DNA of 38,370 nucleotides, taken from positions 1 to 38,370 of the IMG/VR virus record IMGVR_UViG_2645727901_000003; one strand, 5' to 3'. Position 1 is the first letter of the stretch. Each line of letters opens with the position of its first letter. Origin of the DNA: a virus. Its lineage: Duplodnaviria > Heunggongvirae > Uroviricota > Caudoviricetes. Both the position numbers and the translations under genes were made by a program. The notes under the pieces were generated by a model. That model saw only the letters and a list, made by a program, of their open reading frames with translations. It made no database searches and was not told the DNA's origin. This document shows positions 29,018 to 35,098 of this stretch, in pieces.

Positions 29018-29313
29018 AAATTGTCCTCTCTGGCCTCTGCGGCCATCTTCAGATACTGATCTGGGCAGTGCGTCATGACGCGCTGAAACATAACCAGAGC
29101 CAGGTTGCGCTGCCCTTCGTTGAATGCTGTGATGTGCGGATCTACGTTGAAGCAAGCTCCGAACACCTGACCTTTCTCAAGCAGTGACCAGATCACGCGT
29201 CGGCCCTGCTCGCTGCCCATAACGAACTGGATGTCGTCGATATCGCGCTGCGCCAGAAGTTGCTGTTTGGCGTCAATCTCTGCTTTTCGGCCTTCGTCAT
29301 CGATATCAGTCAT
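29014..29313 (-). CDS. Small phage protein (Bbp19-like?)
   Basis: 99 aa, coupled to portal gene. Confidence 0.3.
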   Translation of the reverse strand: MTDIDDEGRKAEIDAKQQLLAQRDIDDIQFVMGSEQGRRVIWSLLEKGQVFGACFNVDPHITAFNEGQRNLALVMFQRVMTHCPDQYLKMAAEAREDNL

Positions 29314-30980
29314 TGCTGCGGTGCTCCTGCTGCATTAGCGATAGCGGTTAATGCGCTCGGGTCAGTGGTCTGCGTTTCGCTGAGAGTCTTGGCTCCCTGT
29401 GCTGCGGCCTGCCCCATTGCCATTGCCTGTGCGGCTTGTGCCTGTTTGGCGCGCTCTTCACGAATACCCTGTACCTGCTCCTGCGGAACGATGACCGTTG
29501 GCGATACGCCGGACATTTCTGAGAACGCGTCGATAGCCTCATCCACGTCGAGCTTGTCGAGTGCTTCAGGTTTGAATTGTGCGAGTTGACCGATGAAGCC
29601 AACGGTCTGCGACAGACTGGTGAGGCCGATAGATTTCTGTGCCTGCGCCATCACGGATATGTATTCGATACGCAGCGGCATACCCTGCATAACGTCCGGC
29701 GGTGGAGGAAGCATGTTCTTGCGCGCCATGATGGAGAACACGCGGTCAATAAGCGGGTTAAGTGCTTCGTCGTTCAGGCGCTCCAGTACCGGACCGAGCA
29801 TCAGCAGTTTCTCTTCCTTCATCTCGATCACCGCTTCCACCGGCATAGAGCGGGTGTTGATGTTTTGCAGCATCATGAAGAGGTCGACGAAGTAGGCGCT
29901 GTTGATGGTCTGGCGGGTATCCTGAATGTCAGCGAGCAGATCTGCTGTATTCGGGTTTACCAGGTATGCAGGCTTGAAACCGTCCTGACCGCTCAACACA
30001 TCGAGGTACGTCACATCACCAGGCAGCAGGGAAACACGCTGTGTTTTTAGCGAGGTAGGTGCAACCATAGGCGGGTTAGTAGCTTTATCGATGAGTTGGG
30101 CTTTACGCTTCTGCTCAACCTGAAGCGCTTTGACCTGACCGAGAGCCAGCATGCCAGGGCAGGATGAGGCGTAAACGTCCTCGCCGTTAACTTCCCAGCG
30201 TGGAGCCAGGATCGGAAATTCATCGAAGCCAGATTCACGCAGCAGCTTGTCGGAGTCGCCGCCAGTCTCAAAGTACACGGAGCGGAACGGTTTGTTCTTG
30301 CTGTCCATCTTCCCGGTATCACGGTTAACGTTTGGAGTAATGCAGTGGTTAACCTCGATCCACGTTTCATACGTGCCGTTTTGCCACATCCCTTGCACCG
30401 ATGAGCTGACATTATCCAGACCGAATTCCTGCACAAGCTGGCGAACAGTCATGGAGAACTGACGGAAGGATGTGTCGACGCTGCCGCGCGGACTGTTAGC
30501 CAGGTAGTAGCTGCCAATGGGGAAAGGCATTGTGCGGATCACGTCCTGGTCATCTTCGAGCACAGCCATTGCAGCGGTACCGAAAGTTCCCAGGCTGGCG
30601 TACATGACAGGCAGTGACTGATACAGGTTAGACTTGTTGAACACTTCGTTCATACGGCGCTGCACGACTTCAAGCCACACCTTAACCGGTCCGTAATCCA
30701 TCATGTCAGGGTCAGGCGTTGCCAGTTTGAACCATGGGCGGGCCGGGCTGGTGATGCCGGACATCATGCCGCTGGACAGAATGCGCTGAGCCATTGAACC
30801 GGTAGGATCAACAATCTTGGTATTACGACGATCATCACGGTTTACATCAGACGTCAGAAAGCGGGAACCGCGCGGATTGATGAAGTCGCTCAGGTCACGC
30901 CAGTGTGACTCGAACGATGTGCGCTCATTCTTCAACTGTGCGAGTTGCTTCAGCAGACGCTCTTTTTCGGTTTCCGCCAT
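29310..30980 (-). CDS. Portal / head-to-tail connector protein (T7 gp8-like)
   Basis: 556 aa; C-terminal QAQAAQAMAMGQAAAQGAKT resembles recalled T7 connector C-terminus; follows terL. Confidence 0.65.
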   Translation of the reverse strand: MAETEKERLLKQLAQLKNERTSFESHWRDLSDFINPRGSRFLTSDVNRDDRRNTKIVDPTGSMAQRILSSGMMSGITSPARPWFKLATPDPDMMDYGPVKVWLEVVQRRMNEVFNKSNLYQSLPVMYASLGTFGTAAMAVLEDDQDVIRTMPFPIGSYYLANSPRGSVDTSFRQFSMTVRQLVQEFGLDNVSSSVQGMWQNGTYETWIEVNHCITPNVNRDTGKMDSKNKPFRSVYFETGGDSDKLLRESGFDEFPILAPRWEVNGEDVYASSCPGMLALGQVKALQVEQKRKAQLIDKATNPPMVAPTSLKTQRVSLLPGDVTYLDVLSGQDGFKPAYLVNPNTADLLADIQDTRQTINSAYFVDLFMMLQNINTRSMPVEAVIEMKEEKLLMLGPVLERLNDEALNPLIDRVFSIMARKNMLPPPPDVMQGMPLRIEYISVMAQAQKSIGLTSLSQTVGFIGQLAQFKPEALDKLDVDEAIDAFSEMSGVSPTVIVPQEQVQGIREERAKQAQAAQAMAMGQAAAQGAKTLSETQTTDPSALTAIANAAGAPQQ

Positions 30981-30994
30981 CTCTGCCTACTCCG

Positions 30995-31201
30995 TTACTG
31001 ACCGAGCAGCGTTTTACCGCTGGTGTTTGCGGTTGAGGTGTCGCCCTGCGCACCAGTCAGCAGAGTGGAACTGCGGCCAGCGGCTGCACGGCGGCGGCGC
31101 TCTTCGTCATCACGAGAACTGACAACTGCTGCATCCTGCTCCTGTGGCGCGGCCTGTACTTCTGGTGCTGCTGGCACTGATGGCTTGCTGCCGATACACA
31201 T
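30995..31201 (-). CDS. Small low-complexity protein upstream of portal
   Basis: 68 aa, ATG with GGAG Shine-Dalgarno; may be spurious. Confidence 0.3.
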   Translation of the reverse strand: MCIGSKPSVPAAPEVQAAPQEQDAAVVSSRDDEERRRRAAAGRSSTLLTGAQGDTSTANTSGKTLLGQ

Positions 31202-31290
31202 AGCAATAGCTCCGTACGCAATTAAATTATTACCAATTTAACCACATATGATTTATTTAGCGTAGGATATTGACACATATAACATCAGAT

Positions 31291-31307
31291 ATTACCTTTT
31301 AGGTAAT
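31291..31307. promoter_or_regulatory. 17-bp palindrome ATTACCT-TTT-AGGTAAT (candidate operator), copy 2
   Basis: Same half-sites as 12481..12497; overlaps the -35 region of an extended -10 element. Confidence 0.45.
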
Positions 31308-31313
31308 TGATGT

Positions 31314-31322
31314 TGATATAAC
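31314..31322 (+). promoter_or_regulatory. Candidate extended -10 promoter element (TGaTATAAC)
   Basis: TG-N-TATAAC; TTGACA hexamer at 31270..31275 lacks a properly spaced -10. Confidence 0.3.
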
Positions 31323-32006
31323 TCAGTGGTTGTACGGCATATGGCACATGTGCCGCAGCGGTCCGGATGGGTTCCCTTGATGCTACTTCCCCAGCCGGGT
31401 AGCCGGAATGTGCAAGCCAGTGTTAGGTAAGCACGGACAGACGACTCACCATCGTGGCGATACGGTGTGACACCTCGGAAGAGACGAGGATGCAACGATG
31501 AGAGCATTGCAGGTTTACATGGTGGACATGATTGCCACGGAGTACGAAGCAAAGTGCAGTGCTCTCAATGTTGTGGTTTTCCTGATGCTAGTTGGTTCGG
31601 TTGCGGCGGATACCAAGGCGACGAAGGAAATGCTGACGCACAGCACCACAGCAACGAAAGCCGCTAATCGGTTATGAGGATTCGCGCCTGACGGGTCGAA
31701 ATTTGCGGCATCAGGCACATAACAGGTAAGAGCATTGAACCCGTAGACCTCGCGGATTGGTGAAAGGTGCCGCGCAGTGCTCTTTCCGTTGTGGTGAATG
31801 GCGGGGCTGACCGTCAAACGGTTGAGAAAAGATAAGCAGGCGAAACGTTCTAAGCGAGCATATGGACTGATCGAACGCGGATGGAACGGGCGGTTACGAT
31901 ATTGAAACACCGCGCCACTGAGCTGGAGTTCAGCACCAGCCACCACAAACGAATCACGTTAGGACCGTGGTAAACCGTAGTGCCAATGTAATTGCTGTGT
32001 GACTTT

Positions 32007-32059
32007 GTCGGTGCCAGATTCATCCCGAGTTGCCCCTCGCTGGTACCGACACTTTTTTT
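32007..32059 (+). terminator. Intrinsic terminator-like hairpin
   Basis: GTCGGTGCCAG ... CTGGTACCGAC stem with one G-U wobble, then UUUUUUU. Confidence 0.45.
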
Positions 32060-32132
32060 ACAGCAGAACGCCATTGCGATGACGTTGCGCTGTAAACCCG
32101 TAACTGCCATGGAAGGCACCCTTACTTCCAGT

Positions 32133-32158
32133 TCGCCCACTTCGGTGGGCATTTTTTT
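32133..32158 (+). terminator. Intrinsic terminator directly upstream of ORF RBS
   Basis: GCCCAC-UUCG-GUGGGC then AUUUUUUU; AAGGTGAG Shine-Dalgarno and ATG at 32170 follow. Confidence 0.65.
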
Positions 32159-32169
32159 AAGGTGAGATT

Positions 32170-32601
32170 ATGAGCAAAGACCTGTTTGACATGAAGCGCC
32201 TTCCGGTTGACCGGGTTGCTGCGAGAGTTGTTGGTAAGGGCGTGGATTGGACACCAAACAAAGTTATCCAGACAGGAGACAGCGATCTGCCGTTGCCAGT
32301 GTTTTCTGTATATAACATTAAAAACCCGCAACAACGGCGAGAAGTGAAAGCAATGATCGGAAGAAAGCGCGGGAGATTGACAATAATTGGCCTTGCTGTC
32401 ACGCAAGGAGCAAAAAATAAAGGTGCTCGCTATGTTGCTCGTTGTGTTTGCGGGATTTATACGTATCGCCGAGCAAAAAATTTCAAGAATAATTCCGATG
32501 AGTTTGATGGCTGCGAACGATGCAGGGAGTTGCTGTTTTTGAAACGAGATGAGGTCCATCGCAGAACTGGAAAATGGGTAGAATGGAAAGATTTGATATA
32601 A
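32170..32601 (+). CDS. Zinc-ribbon protein of unknown function (antisense moron)
   Basis: 143 aa; strong Shine-Dalgarno; CVCG...CERC Cys pairs; basic. Confidence 0.55.
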   Translation: MSKDLFDMKRLPVDRVAARVVGKGVDWTPNKVIQTGDSDLPLPVFSVYNIKNPQQRREVKAMIGRKRGRLTIIGLAVTQGAKNKGARYVARCVCGIYTYRRAKNFKNNSDEFDGCERCRELLFLKRDEVHRRTGKWVEWKDLI

Positions 32602-32604
32602 CGC

Positions 32605-32618
32605 TGTGACATGTCACA
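32605..32618. repeat. Palindrome TGTGACATGTCACA (GTGACATGTCAC copy 2)
   Basis: 14-bp perfect palindrome just after the ORF stop and before the terminator. Confidence 0.6.
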
Positions 32619-32621
32619 TTC

Positions 32622-32646
32622 AGCCCGCCGATGCGCGGGCTTTTTT
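32622..32646 (+). terminator. Intrinsic terminator
   Basis: AGCCCGC-CGATGC-GCGGGCU then UUUUUU. Confidence 0.65.
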
Positions 32647-32688
32647 GTATGGCATAATCACTCATTCGATTATCACAGCGAGTGGACC

Positions 32689-32970
32689 ATGAAAATTAAA
32701 CAAAAAATTGTTAATACCTTTGTGAACTCAACCCATGAGTGGAACATGGCCATGCACAATGCCATTGAAAGAAAGGTATTTGAAGGATTTGAAAGCACAT
32801 TCCCTAATGGATTAAAAGACCCTGCTGAGACCGGTGAAAGAATAGAGTCAATGCGTGCATTCTATTATCAGCGCATGATGAATACCGCATCACTTTTGCT
32901 AACTGGTGCGTCACTAATCATTGCATTAGTTGCCTTGGTTGTAGCTCTGATATCAATTCACTATGCATAG
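32689..32970 (+). CDS. Tail-anchored small membrane protein (antisense moron)
   Basis: 93 aa from MKIKQ (ORF track begins at 32611); C-terminal TM helix LLLTGASLIIALVALVVALISI; 3' end overlaps terL stop convergently. Confidence 0.45.
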   Translation: MKIKQKIVNTFVNSTHEWNMAMHNAIERKVFEGFESTFPNGLKDPAETGERIESMRAFYYQRMMNTASLLLTGASLIIALVALVVALISIHYA

Positions 32971-34436
32971 GGGTCGTATTCTGTCAACGCCTTGCCCTGC
33001 TGGCTTTGCTGTCCTGGTATATTCATACGTTTCGACACCGGGAAAGCAAACGTCAGCAGCAGCGCATCACCCTTGCCAGGAGAACGGCCTAACCGCTCTT
33101 TGATATCTTCCTTCGGCTCAATAACTATCTTGCCGTCCACCCTGACTTTGTACTCAGCCGCCGACAGGTCGTCAGCCGTTTCCTGGTCATCCAGTGCGCC
33201 ACCAATTTTCAGCCACGTTTTGCAGCTGTTGAACATCTCGCCGCGCTTGTTGAGCATCTGCGGATCGGTAGAGCCGCCGCCGAAAGGTATCAGTTGCCAG
33301 GAACGGCCCCAGCCATCACCGATTGACTTCAGCCCGGTACCATACCCGAAGTCGATGAATACAGCGTCAGCCTGGTACTGGTCTTCAAAATCAGCGATAC
33401 GCTTTGCCATAATCAGATCATCGGTTGTCTTATTGCCGGTCCATAGCACTTTGCTGTGAAGCCCCTGGCGCAGGTATATCACCGCGTCATCCACACCGGA
33501 ATACGCCGGGTCAACACCGATAATCACCGGAGCGTGCGCCACCTGCCCGGCTGTCACCACGCGCTTCATTGCGGAATCAGTCAGGCCTGTCGGGATAAAC
33601 TGGAGTTCAGACGCATCAGGGAAGATCCCGCGTACACGAACTTTCACGAAGTCGCTATCCTCGCCGTAGTCATCAACCCACTTCTGCAACTGCTGCTTGT
33701 TGGTGCCTTCCACGGTGCGGCTGTCTATCTGCGCGCACTTCCAGCGGTGTTTGTATTTGCGGAAGCATTCACGGAAACGCCCGGTGTTACGCGTAGGGTT
33801 CCCGAACGCCACCCAGATGATTTCGGTGTCTTCGTCCGTCAGCGCACCCTCGGCAACTTCCCACACCAGATCGGCAATGTTGGACGCTTCATCGAATACA
33901 ACGATGATGCGCTTGCGTTCGTTGTGCAGACCGGCGAACGCCTCGGTGTTGTGTTCAGACCATGGAATAGCATCAGCGCGCCAGCGTTTGTCGTGACCGG
34001 GATCGTTGCTGTACATCGCGGTGGCGGTGCAGGTGAACCACTCTTTCGTGATAGCCAGGTTCGACCATTTGATGATTTCAGGCCATGTTTTGGTGCGCAG
34101 CTGGTTGTCGGTGTTGGCGGTCACCACCACCTTGCAGTCTTCACAGGTAGACATGCCCCAGTTGATGAGCATCGAGATGAACGCAGATTTACCGATACCG
34201 TGGCCGGATGCGCGGGCCAACATCAGCGGCTGGTGACGCGTTGCTGGATTCTGCAGGTGATCGCGTATCTCGCGGAATGCGTCTGCCTGCCATTTTCGCG
34301 GGCCGGTGGCATGCGCCAGTTCTGTCCCCTCTTCGCCCCACGGAAACGCATACAGCGAATAGCCCAGCGGGTCATATGTGAACGATGCAATATCCTCGAC
34401 AAGCTGCTCTTCCGGCGACATGGCTGCGGCTGTCAT
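32961..34436 (-). CDS. terL: Terminase large subunit
   Basis: 491 aa; Walker A-like GHGIGKS; ATGA overlap with terS stop. Confidence 0.75.
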   Translation of the reverse strand: MTAAAMSPEEQLVEDIASFTYDPLGYSLYAFPWGEEGTELAHATGPRKWQADAFREIRDHLQNPATRHQPLMLARASGHGIGKSAFISMLINWGMSTCEDCKVVVTANTDNQLRTKTWPEIIKWSNLAITKEWFTCTATAMYSNDPGHDKRWRADAIPWSEHNTEAFAGLHNERKRIIVVFDEASNIADLVWEVAEGALTDEDTEIIWVAFGNPTRNTGRFRECFRKYKHRWKCAQIDSRTVEGTNKQQLQKWVDDYGEDSDFVKVRVRGIFPDASELQFIPTGLTDSAMKRVVTAGQVAHAPVIIGVDPAYSGVDDAVIYLRQGLHSKVLWTGNKTTDDLIMAKRIADFEDQYQADAVFIDFGYGTGLKSIGDGWGRSWQLIPFGGGSTDPQMLNKRGEMFNSCKTWLKIGGALDDQETADDLSAAEYKVRVDGKIVIEPKEDIKERLGRSPGKGDALLLTFAFPVSKRMNIPGQQSQQGKALTEYDPYA

Positions 34437-35026
34437 TCTTCACCACCATCCAGCTCTTTCACGCGACGGCGGGCCTTCGCCATGCGGTCGGCAATGGTGA
34501 CGGTGCCGGAAACCTCCAGGCGCTCTTTGAACGCATTGACGTCGACGTGCTTACCGATAAGCTCGAGGTTCTTCACCTTGTCAGGCCATTTGATTTTTTT
34601 GAGGATTGTTTCTATCGAATCCTCGTTCATATTCATGATGGTCGATGACAAATCGAAACCGCTCAGTGTAGTACGCCATATCTTTGGCCACTCGCGGATA
34701 GGCTTCAGTGTGCCGTCATCGTTCAGGATATCGATCACGTCCATCTGGTCAATTTCCACCAGGCGGAGCAGTACGTAGTCCGCACTGACGCGCAAACGCT
34801 TGTTACGCTCTTCCATCAGTTCGGCGATCCGTTTCTGGATACGCTCATCACGCATCATGACACTGGCCTTGACTGCCGCCGTATTTGGCGAAAATCCTGC
34901 GTTAATCGCTGCCTGAGTCTGATTCTCAGGGCATTTGGTATATTCCTGCGCGTAAGCCTCCTGCATCGCTGTAATTGGCTTATACTGCGTTGATTTGCGT
35001 TTTGGTGCTTTTGGTTCTGCGGGCAT
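34433..35026 (-). CDS. terS: Terminase small subunit
   Basis: About 197 aa from ATG at 35026 (ORF track TTG start at 35074); position and basic/helical character. Confidence 0.55.
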   Translation of the reverse strand: MPAEPKAPKRKSTQYKPITAMQEAYAQEYTKCPENQTQAAINAGFSPNTAAVKASVMMRDERIQKRIAELMEERNKRLRVSADYVLLRLVEIDQMDVIDILNDDGTLKPIREWPKIWRTTLSGFDLSSTIMNMNEDSIETILKKIKWPDKVKNLELIGKHVDVNAFKERLEVSGTVTIADRMAKARRRVKELDGGEE

Positions 35027-35069
35027 TGTTACCACCGAAGTAATAATTACCGTTTTGGTAATAGTAACA

Positions 35070-35098
35070 CGCAAAACAAAGCCGCCATAGTCGGCGGC
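35070..35098 (-). terminator. Intrinsic terminator
   Basis: GCCGCC-ATAGTC-GGCGGC hairpin followed on the minus strand by UUUGUUUUG. Confidence 0.55.

Follow-up and report, generated by a model that had tools for sequence, protein, structure and literature searches.

The gap between terL and gp3 in epsilon15-like phages is a genus-wide cargo slot, with interchangeable passengers behind a modular leader RNA

The window analysed here is a stretch of 38,370 nucleotides (nt) from a virus of the class Caudoviricetes, corresponding to positions 1 to 38,370 of the IMG/VR virus record IMGVR_UViG_2645727901_000003, and its late genes are of the epsilon15-like podovirus type, genus Uetakevirus. The subject of this study is an accessory transcription unit that runs antisense to these late genes and that consists of a leader of about 850 nt, which holds no conserved open reading frame (ORF), followed by two small cargo ORFs, ORF1 (32170-32601, + strand) and ORF2 (32689-32970, + strand). 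The late genes lie on the - strand: terS (34433-35074), terL (32961-34436), which encodes 491 amino acids (aa) in the window and in other relatives and forms the right border of the slot, a gene for a 68-aa protein (30995-31201) that matches phrog_831 (E = 6e-34) and is the homologue of the gene named gp3 in epsilon15, and finally portal (29310-30980). The initial annotation of the window, made from the sequence alone, had placed the unit between terL and portal and regarded these two genes as normally adjacent. This is not the case, for the left border of the slot is the gp3 homologue, which sits beside portal, and a gap of 557-1877 base pairs (bp) separates the borders in 71/71 relatives. 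In the window the + strand interval between gp3 and terL measures 1,759 bp. The terL gene of the Salmonella virus PAT1 (L002, 4106-6556) is annotated as 2451 bp long, equivalent to 816 aa, a length that could stem from a fusion, from an intein-like insertion or from an error of annotation.

The relatives were obtained as 80 IMG/VR loci fetched by the terL protein alone, all at least 95% identical, of which 71 hold both of the anchor genes. The gap between gp3/portal and terL is filled in all 71, with a median length of 1236 bp, and the accessory unit runs antisense to the late operon in every relative. Clustering of the slot ORFs was confounded by read-through translation of a conserved leader segment, termed module C, and the cargo was counted instead by tblastn of defined cargo proteins. 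Amongst 66 distinct slots a tRNA-Arg(UCU) gene is present in 25, an ORF of the gp49/66 family in 22, ORF1 in seven and ORF2 in four. ORF1 occurs without ORF2 in four of the 66 slots and ORF2 without ORF1 in one, with both being present in three, and the two are also found together in a further locus (L133). The same variety is seen in named phages and prophages: epsilon15 carries a 121-aa protein of the gp49/66 family, SPN9TCW a tRNA-Arg and a 168-aa protein, the prophage of enterotoxigenic Escherichia coli (ETEC) H10407 a tRNA-Arg and a 201-aa protein, PAT1 and the E2348/69 prophage an ORF1 homologue and no ORF2, and ET846 an 88-aa protein. No tRNA is detected in the window by ARAGORN, although relatives have tRNA-Arg at this place. 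In the slot leader of E2348/69 (L004, 3555-3667) a 113-nt 'pseudogenic tRNA-Gly' is called by PGAP at a site where ARAGORN finds no tRNA, and this may be a tRNA-like RNA module.

The terL-gp3 gap is a genus-wide cargo slot of the epsilon15-like (Uetakevirus) phages, with interchangeable passengers, and ORF1, ORF2 and the leader RNA are shown to assort independently of one another. The initial view of the insert as antisense, accessory and exchangeable material is borne out by these comparisons; when relatives are searched at the terL-portal junction the slot is always filled and the two ORFs are variably present. Conservation across essentially all close relatives, which would count against that view, is found for the unit formed of promoter and leader RNA, which is kept in 69 of the 71 slots (two as truncated copies), but not for the two ORFs.

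The first 108 nt of the leader (31202-31309) are nearly invariant among relatives, and the promoter region is invariant in seven of them. The proposed promoter (31271-31307, +) has a consensus -35 element, TTGACA (31271-31276), and a weak -10. A palindrome, ATTACC-TTTTA-GGTAAT (31291-31307, +), covers the -10/+1 region as a putative operator and is labelled as a repressor site in the epsilon15 record. A sigma-70 consensus scan returned no + strand promoter, and both promoters proposed for the unit, this one and that of ORF2, were identified by visual inspection of the sequence. Between the promoter and the first RNA module, epsilon15, PAT1, E2348/69 and ET846 have a further conserved stretch of about 210 nt, inserted there and absent from the window; the epsilon15 record has an 'RNaseIII' feature there.

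The core of the palindrome, TTACC-N5-GGTAA, is found seven times in the window with no more than one mismatch, compared to an expectation of 0.67, and each copy is beside a promoter-like region. Exact copies are located at 12482 and 12865, upstream of isrK/C4 RNA genes, at 31292 in the leader and at 35047 at the start of terS, where a copy at 35029 and that at 35047 are arranged in tandem. This pattern suggests, by analogy with C1 in P1, that one repressor may control several scattered operons, and the leader promoter would accordingly be counted among its predicted targets. Because its promoter is read as repressor-controlled, the leader unit would be an early unit and not one expressed in the lysogen. 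Matches in the window above the Rfam gathering score are isrK (12916-12990, +), C4 antisense RNA (13015-13100, +) and traJ-II (1365-1463, -). In a layout that resembles P1 immI, the isrK/C4 pair is placed just behind a promoter covered by the operator and is followed by a 232-aa ORF (13140-13838).

The leader itself is a train of exchangeable RNA cassettes in the order B, mosaic, M and C. Module B (31335-31490, +) is a pseudoknotted RNA with helices P1, P2, P4 and P5, in which the pseudoknot joins the P4 loop to a downstream GGUG. The core of the module is formed by an invariant 19-mer, GGUAGCCGGAAUGUGCAAG, at 31398-31416 (GGTAGCCGGAATGTGCAAG in its DNA form), together with the equally invariant P5 loop GAAGAGA; the 19-mer lies outside the covariation-supported helices, which vary. 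In an alignment of 52 sequences with less than 92% identity, 96.1% of the cells are paired and 14 of the 26 pairs have two-sided changes, in 104 cells. These values are not attained in any of 500 column shuffles, and pairing falls to 30-50% when the partners are slid by one to three columns. A covariance model of the module detects a single copy in the window, at 31329-31515 with 181.5 bits, and the segment 31332-31509 is common to unrelated phages at 75-99% identity. Rfam 15 contains no match to the leader or to module B, either in a scan of the whole window at gathering scores or in a permissive scan of 31150-33000 with E up to 10, the latter giving chance-level matches alone (E of at least 0.14), none of which overlaps B meaningfully. 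A limited literature search found neither the module nor the two cargo proteins described in the Pas sRNA (small RNA), Minerva, P1 delta-hfq and ZX5 papers.

A number of other identities for module B were considered and rejected. As a coding region it has no conserved gene to offer, since the ATG in its tail opens 5, 8 and 59 codons in different relatives. With RNase P RNA it has the words GGGUAG, GCCAGUG and GGUGAAAGG in common, but alignment to E. coli rnpB scores 47 against 41 +/- 7 for shuffles, whose maximum is 67. The HK022 put RNAs and the lambda nut sites are leader elements of early operons that make RNA polymerase resistant to terminators. As an HK022-type put RNA, module B fails in that BLAST against the HK022 immunity region, with putL and putR located in the HK022 sequence, yields only chance 9-14-mers, the covariance model finds nothing in HK022 and the architecture differs. 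As a lambda nut site, it has in P5 a 5-bp hairpin with a purine-rich loop but no adjacent boxA, and no N-like proteins are encoded downstream of it in three lambdoid phages.

At least 134 copies of module B were found, and 68 of the 134 follow a same-strand gene for a cI-like repressor at a distance of 180-300 nt, with 56 in the Uetakevirus slot and one in the ban operon of P1. Within the terL-selected set the module is present in 73 of the 80 loci. The repressor-linked position corresponds to the start of the early-left (pL) transcript, as seen in the lambdoid phage mEp390, in Stx2a_1447 and in two phages deposited as Stenotrophomonas phages. In mEp390 a promoter of the form TTGACA-18-TACATT lies about 50 nt upstream of B, and in the window B is about 30 nt from the inferred transcription start. 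The P1 copy (AF234173.1, ~70699-70904; L139, 2918-3123) is full-length, scores 129.6 bits and is located between trnI and ban, where it is absent from the P1 annotation; the ban operon is C1-controlled according to the P1 record. The common denominator of these contexts is an early unit under direct immunity-repressor control, often with tRNA genes.

More than 120 IMG/VR contigs carry the exact 19-mer, as do 24 species-representative genomes, and these genomes are all from Enterobacterales save for two metagenome bins. These two (L148 and L160) are labelled Oscillospiraceae and Bacillota and most likely reflect contamination with enterobacterial phage. When the stretch 31200-32970 was compared with 5426 complete E. 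coli genomes, 716 were matched, and many of the matches listed cover the B segment alone. In the pL leader of Stx2a_1447 (L009, 2890-2925) a boxA-like sequence, CGCTCTTTTTACAA, comes after B and M and is itself followed by a long hairpin and the first gene; its counterpart in the window (~32047-32063) is degenerate.

Behind module B, the mosaic middle of the leader (31498-31780, +) is composed of pieces of 65-95 nt, for each of which hundreds of E. coli genomes and many unrelated phages have a counterpart at 93-97% identity. The pieces are bounded by a junction motif, AAC-N4-AGAGCATTG, at 31487-31512 and 31718-31740 (+), which follows B in many loci and which may be a processing site or a recombination joint of the RNA cassettes. 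A 59-aa ORF (31498-31677, +) that begins at the ATG in the B tail has a good Shine-Dalgarno sequence and a hydrophobic centre; its absence from all of the 103 other slots that were examined makes it unlikely to be a gene. Module M (31789-31948, +) is closed by an invariant 8-bp helix, UUGUGGUG/CACCACAA, around two conserved hairpins and a variable interior. Six pairs in the two hairpins have compensatory changes, six to eight each (RNAalifold, 21 sequences). About 30 loci contain the module, and in phage 15G a copy follows tRNA-Met with no B present.

Module C (32056-32165, +), with which the leader ends, is conserved at 95-97% identity in relatives that have different cargo ORFs. A strong intrinsic terminator at 32131-32157 (+), with a 7-bp stem (32131-32150), a UUCG loop and seven T residues, lies within these coordinates, and the Shine-Dalgarno sequence of whichever cargo ORF is present is placed 2 nt past it. 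The unit should accordingly yield, for the most part, an RNA some 850 nt long.

In the window the cargo gene in this position is ORF1, which encodes a basic zinc-ribbon protein of 143 aa with an isoelectric point of 10.1. Its cysteines are arranged as C92-x-C94 (CVCG) and C115-x-x-C118 (CERC), and all four are invariant in 23 homologues with identities down to 29%. The protein matches phrog_18493 (E = 1e-61) and, weakly and over residues 52-109, the HNH endonuclease family phrog_374 (E = 9e-6), and has no Pfam match at all and no nuclease domain. Its structural model, with a predicted local distance difference test (pLDDT) score of 76.9, consists of a small beta-sheet that bears the zinc ribbon and is followed by a long helix; the ribbon is marginally like that of ribosomal protein bL31 (E = 0.02). 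An assignment as an HNH homing endonuclease was rejected, as there is no HNH catalytic domain and the match is limited to a non-catalytic N-terminal module. Homologues with 40-51% identity are found within strings of small early genes of other prophages, including the early-left operons of lambdoid prophages, and two of these are located downstream of a cI/S24-type repressor gene and beside an MT-A70 methylase gene, respectively, neither with ORF2 or the RNA nearby. ORF1 is therefore most likely a small basic early protein that binds nucleic acid, as judged from its sequence and neighbourhood. A consensus scan found no promoter of its own, and its ribosome-binding site starts 2 nt past the T-run of the leader terminator. 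Because this site is directly behind the terminator, ORF1 would be made only from read-through transcripts, and its expression is predicted to depend on read-through.

The preferred start of ORF2 is the ATG at 32689, which yields a protein of 93 aa, for a longer frame of 119 aa would begin inside a terminator. Its stop overlaps the end of the convergent terL by 10 bp. The protein is a predicted tail-anchored helical hairpin of the inner membrane with a single hydrophobic segment at about residues 67-89, four residues from the C-terminus (maximum Kyte-Doolittle value 2.85). The AlphaFold2 model has a pLDDT of 95.9 and shows a helix at 3-37, a loop and a long helix at 45-92, the last third of which is the membrane anchor. 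There are 18 close homologues, and 61 representatives remain at 50% clustering; on this conservation both ORF1 and ORF2 are read as genuine genes, each of a conserved protein family. No significant Pfam, PHROG, NCBIfam or PADLOC match was obtained for ORF2, and none of 48 members of its family matches Pfam or PHROGs. A holin-like toxin was rejected as an identity, with Hol_Tox scoring 18.1 bits against a cut-off of 23.3 and matching the membrane helix only.

ORF2 is preceded by a cassette head (32606-32658, +) composed of a perfect 12-bp palindrome, GTGACATGTCAC (32606-32617), an intrinsic terminator (32622-32647) called by a terminator scan, and an extended -10 promoter, TGGCATAAT (32650-32658). 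The palindrome is kept in four of six ORF2 loci and may be a protein-binding site; a LexA box was rejected here, as the half-box resemblance in the window is not kept in relatives. The terminator and the extended -10 (TGnCATAAT) are kept as a block behind four different upstream contexts, and their arrangement is conserved in five of six contexts, these being sequence-level calls; a divergent relative has TGATATAAT at the same place. Homologues of ORF2 are always at the terL-proximal end of the slot, with ORF1, a DUF7739 protein, a 60-aa protein or nothing upstream, and both a homologue of 45% identity and locus L138 are in short slots without the leader RNA. In HK97/lambda-like phages, for which the term was defined, a moron is an insert of promoter, gene and terminator between core genes. 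ORF2 is read as a separate moron of this kind, with a terminator of its own that insulates it and an extended -10 promoter of its own that drives it, and would be expressed constitutively. Since it has a promoter of its own and an insulating terminator, it should be expressible from the prophage. A lysogen-expressed membrane moron is plausible, and the best guess at its role is one at the envelope, either in the exclusion of superinfecting phages or in the modulation of membrane proteins.

The two proteins are present as the initial annotation described them, a 143-aa basic zinc-ribbon protein (CVCG...CERC) and a protein of about 93 aa with a C-terminal transmembrane helix. Its statement that they belong to no recognisable family holds for ORF2 but not for ORF1. 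The promoters and terminators attributed to the insert are confirmed as far as the two + strand terminators are concerned, whereas the promoters escaped the consensus scan and ORF1 is without one. Likewise, the label of moron suits ORF2, which has the full anatomy, but not ORF1. The low guanine and cytosine (GC) content taken as a mark of acquisition is seen in ORF1 (0.454) and in the ORF2 cassette (0.417, the lowest of the region), but the leader at 0.504 is ordinary, with portal and terL at 0.55-0.56; the compositionally foreign look is limited to the two ORFs.

Taken as a whole, the best explanation, and one that is likely to be right, is that ORF1 and ORF2 are unrelated accessory genes that travel as interchangeable cargo at the distal end of the antisense transcription unit, and that the conserved function of this accessory unit lies in its RNA and not in its ORFs. 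In this scheme the leader is probably silent in the lysogen and would fire upon derepression or infection, its transcript would end mostly at 32131-32157, ORF1 would be produced from read-through and ORF2 would be expressed from the prophage via its own promoter. As an early-expressed RNA, module B would use its invariant single-stranded core to bind a conserved macromolecule of the host, a partner of this sort being suggested because covarying helices surround that core. The options ranked highest for B are a put-like modifier of RNA polymerase and a decoy released by processing. A simple cis-acting stabiliser of the mRNA is disfavoured because the processing of tRNAs embedded downstream would separate B from the cargo mRNA.

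A broader proposal goes further and is held with less assurance, at somewhat below an even chance. It is that module B, and possibly M too, represents an undescribed class of structured RNA that marks repressor-controlled early units in Enterobacterales temperate phages of three unrelated architectures, namely the epsilon15-like podoviruses, the lambdoid/Stx-converting siphoviruses and P1, and that its invariant single-stranded core binds a conserved host macromolecule. Such an RNA might be either a new protein-independent antiterminator or an RNA decoy that is made first after induction. Module B, a strongly covarying RNA of about 160 nt with a pseudoknot, is absent from Rfam and is present in P1 and in Stx2-converting prophages. 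It would be a new element, open to direct testing, in early gene control or in the takeover of the host by some of the best-studied temperate phages. The terL-gp3 gap of the Uetakeviruses is a cargo hot spot that can be mined gene by gene, for tRNA-Arg, gp49/66-family proteins, ORF1, ORF2 and others.

A series of observations weighs against these readings. The fold energy of module B equals that of shuffled sequences (z = 0.0), so that the evidence for its structure is the covariation. The module is truncated in epsilon15 itself, where it scores 40.9 bits, and is therefore dispensable for that phage. Repressor control of the leader is argued from the recurrence of the motif and from a GenBank annotation. 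An earlier set of loci was mostly fetched with the module B 19-mer, and it is the terL-based set that is unbiased. A simple scan of Stx2a_1447, mEp390 and P1 detected no + strand terminator in the stretch from B to the first gene, which is a point against antitermination in particular, and a terminator census downstream of B in 120 loci gave 239 sites on the + strand and 283 on the - strand, a non-specific outcome that was discarded. For ORF1, the model has no significant fold match in the PDB, and its matches in BFVD, to N-terminal parts of homing endonucleases with AP2-domain, HNH or helix-turn-helix (HTH) features, are weak, with E from 7e-6 to 1e-2.

Two further readings are both possible though rather unlikely, and are given equal weight. 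The first is that ORF2 alone matters, as a lysogen-expressed moron for superinfection exclusion or envelope modification, with ORF1 and the RNA being irrelevant to it. The conserved extended -10 promoter, the insulation by a terminator and the lowest GC of the region (0.417) all agree with this, as do the confidently predicted tail-anchored fold and the constant terL-proximal position, which is held even at 45% identity and without the RNA. On the other hand, the protein matches no characterised family, and Hol_Tox remains below threshold.

The second of the pair regards the leader, from B through M to the terminator, as a stand-alone trans-acting non-coding RNA of about 850 nt, either a decoy or sponge for a host factor or defence protein or a large prophage- and tRNA-linked RNA of the ROOL and GOLLD kind, with the ORFs living on residual read-through. 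It draws on the leader having its own promoter and a strong terminator, on two modules with covariation support and on an invariant 19-mer outside the varying helices. In addition, 25 of the 66 relatives have tRNA genes within the leader, and the processing of these tRNAs would cut B from the downstream parts, and the P1 copy of B directly follows trnI. Set against this are the lack of any ROOL, GOLLD or other Rfam match, the truncated B of epsilon15 and the middle of the leader, which is a poorly conserved mosaic and not one coherent large fold.

Less favoured still, and unlikely, is that B acts specifically as a protein-independent processive antiterminator in the manner of HK022 put, carrying RNA polymerase through the leader terminators into the cargo and, in lambdoid phages, through the early-left operon. 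The position of B suits such a role, being near the promoter of repressor-controlled early operons, where nutL and putL lie, and in Uetakevirus every cargo ORF is set apart from the leader by a terminator that is both strong and conserved. The genes after B in three lambdoid phages include no recognisable N. An embedded tRNA would not abolish the function either, given that put RNA remains active when it is no longer tethered to the transcript (PMC9378689). The terminator scan mentioned above speaks against it, however, as does the want of sequence or covariance-model similarity to HK022 putL and putR. Moreover, B is a pseudoknotted RNA of about 160 nt compared to the two stem-loops of about 70 nt in put, and there is one copy of B per phage in the stretches searched, with none on the pR side.

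That the early antisense transcript serves as a timing device, delaying or trimming late-operon expression through convergent transcription or through pairing with the terL-gp3/portal late mRNA, is quite improbable. Such a device would fit with a unit that in every relative runs against the late operon, with the RNase III site annotated for the corresponding region of epsilon15 and with the operators found both at the leader promoter and at the start of terS; the lambdoid and P1 copies of B are antisense to nothing, though, and the slot content is not conserved on the antisense strand. Finally, the idea of the initial annotation that a sensor (ORF1), a membrane effector (ORF2) and perhaps the RNA make up one abortive-infection or superinfection-exclusion system is very hard to sustain, for although a basic zinc-ribbon protein and a small membrane protein are encoded side by side on the same strand at low GC, and are found together in three of the 66 unbiased slots and in L133, each of the parts occurs without the others and so they do not form a sensor-effector system, a terminator and a separate promoter lie between the two ORFs, PADLOC gives no family for either protein at E up to 1, and an operator-covered promoter followed by a terminator ahead of ORF1 is unlike the control of a gene that is needed on in the lysogen. 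A false lead is thereby removed, in that the two proteins are not to be catalogued as a two-gene defence system.

The preferred reading, of an RNA-led accessory unit with exchangeable cargo, can be compared with several known systems. At the level of the proteins, ORF1 from about residue 52 to 135 is similar in both sequence and predicted fold to the N-terminal module of homing endonucleases (phrog_374, BFVD), with a G-x-L-T-V-I-G strand, R-C-x-C-G and C-x-x-C in common. Unlike the HNH/AP2 homing endonucleases, ORF1 has no HNH or AP2 domain and possesses its own conserved N-terminal 50 residues, and the matches are weak. ORF2 resembles the phage morons in having its own promoter, a bounding terminator, a lower GC content, core genes on its flanks and a pattern of presence and absence among close relatives, but its site of insertion is within an accessory transcription unit that already existed, and not directly between core genes. 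ORF1 shares with morons the presence and absence and the low GC content, but not the promoter.

For the RNA, ROOL and GOLLD are large non-coding RNAs tied to prophages and tRNAs (PMC12286853). The leader is like them in its carriage by prophages and in having tRNA genes next to or inside the RNA, the tRNA-Arg found within the leader of 25 of the 66 slots being the case in point, and differs from them in being modular and mosaic, in matching nothing in Rfam and in its occurrence in Enterobacterales. With HK022 put and lambda nut, module B has in common its position near the promoter of a repressor-controlled early-left transcript and, in Uetakevirus, its place upstream of a strong terminator. 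In contrast to these elements it is built of four helices and a pseudoknot, and its boxB-like P5 hairpin, with the loop GAAGAGA, has no boxA. The ban operon of P1 provides a further parallel: whilst its copy of B is about 2.3 kb from the promoter and precedes the gene for a replicative helicase instead of small cargo ORFs, the operon as a whole, with a DicF-like RNA, three tRNAs, tciABC and ban, is similar to the unit of the window in being a repressor-controlled mix of tRNAs, small RNAs and accessory genes.

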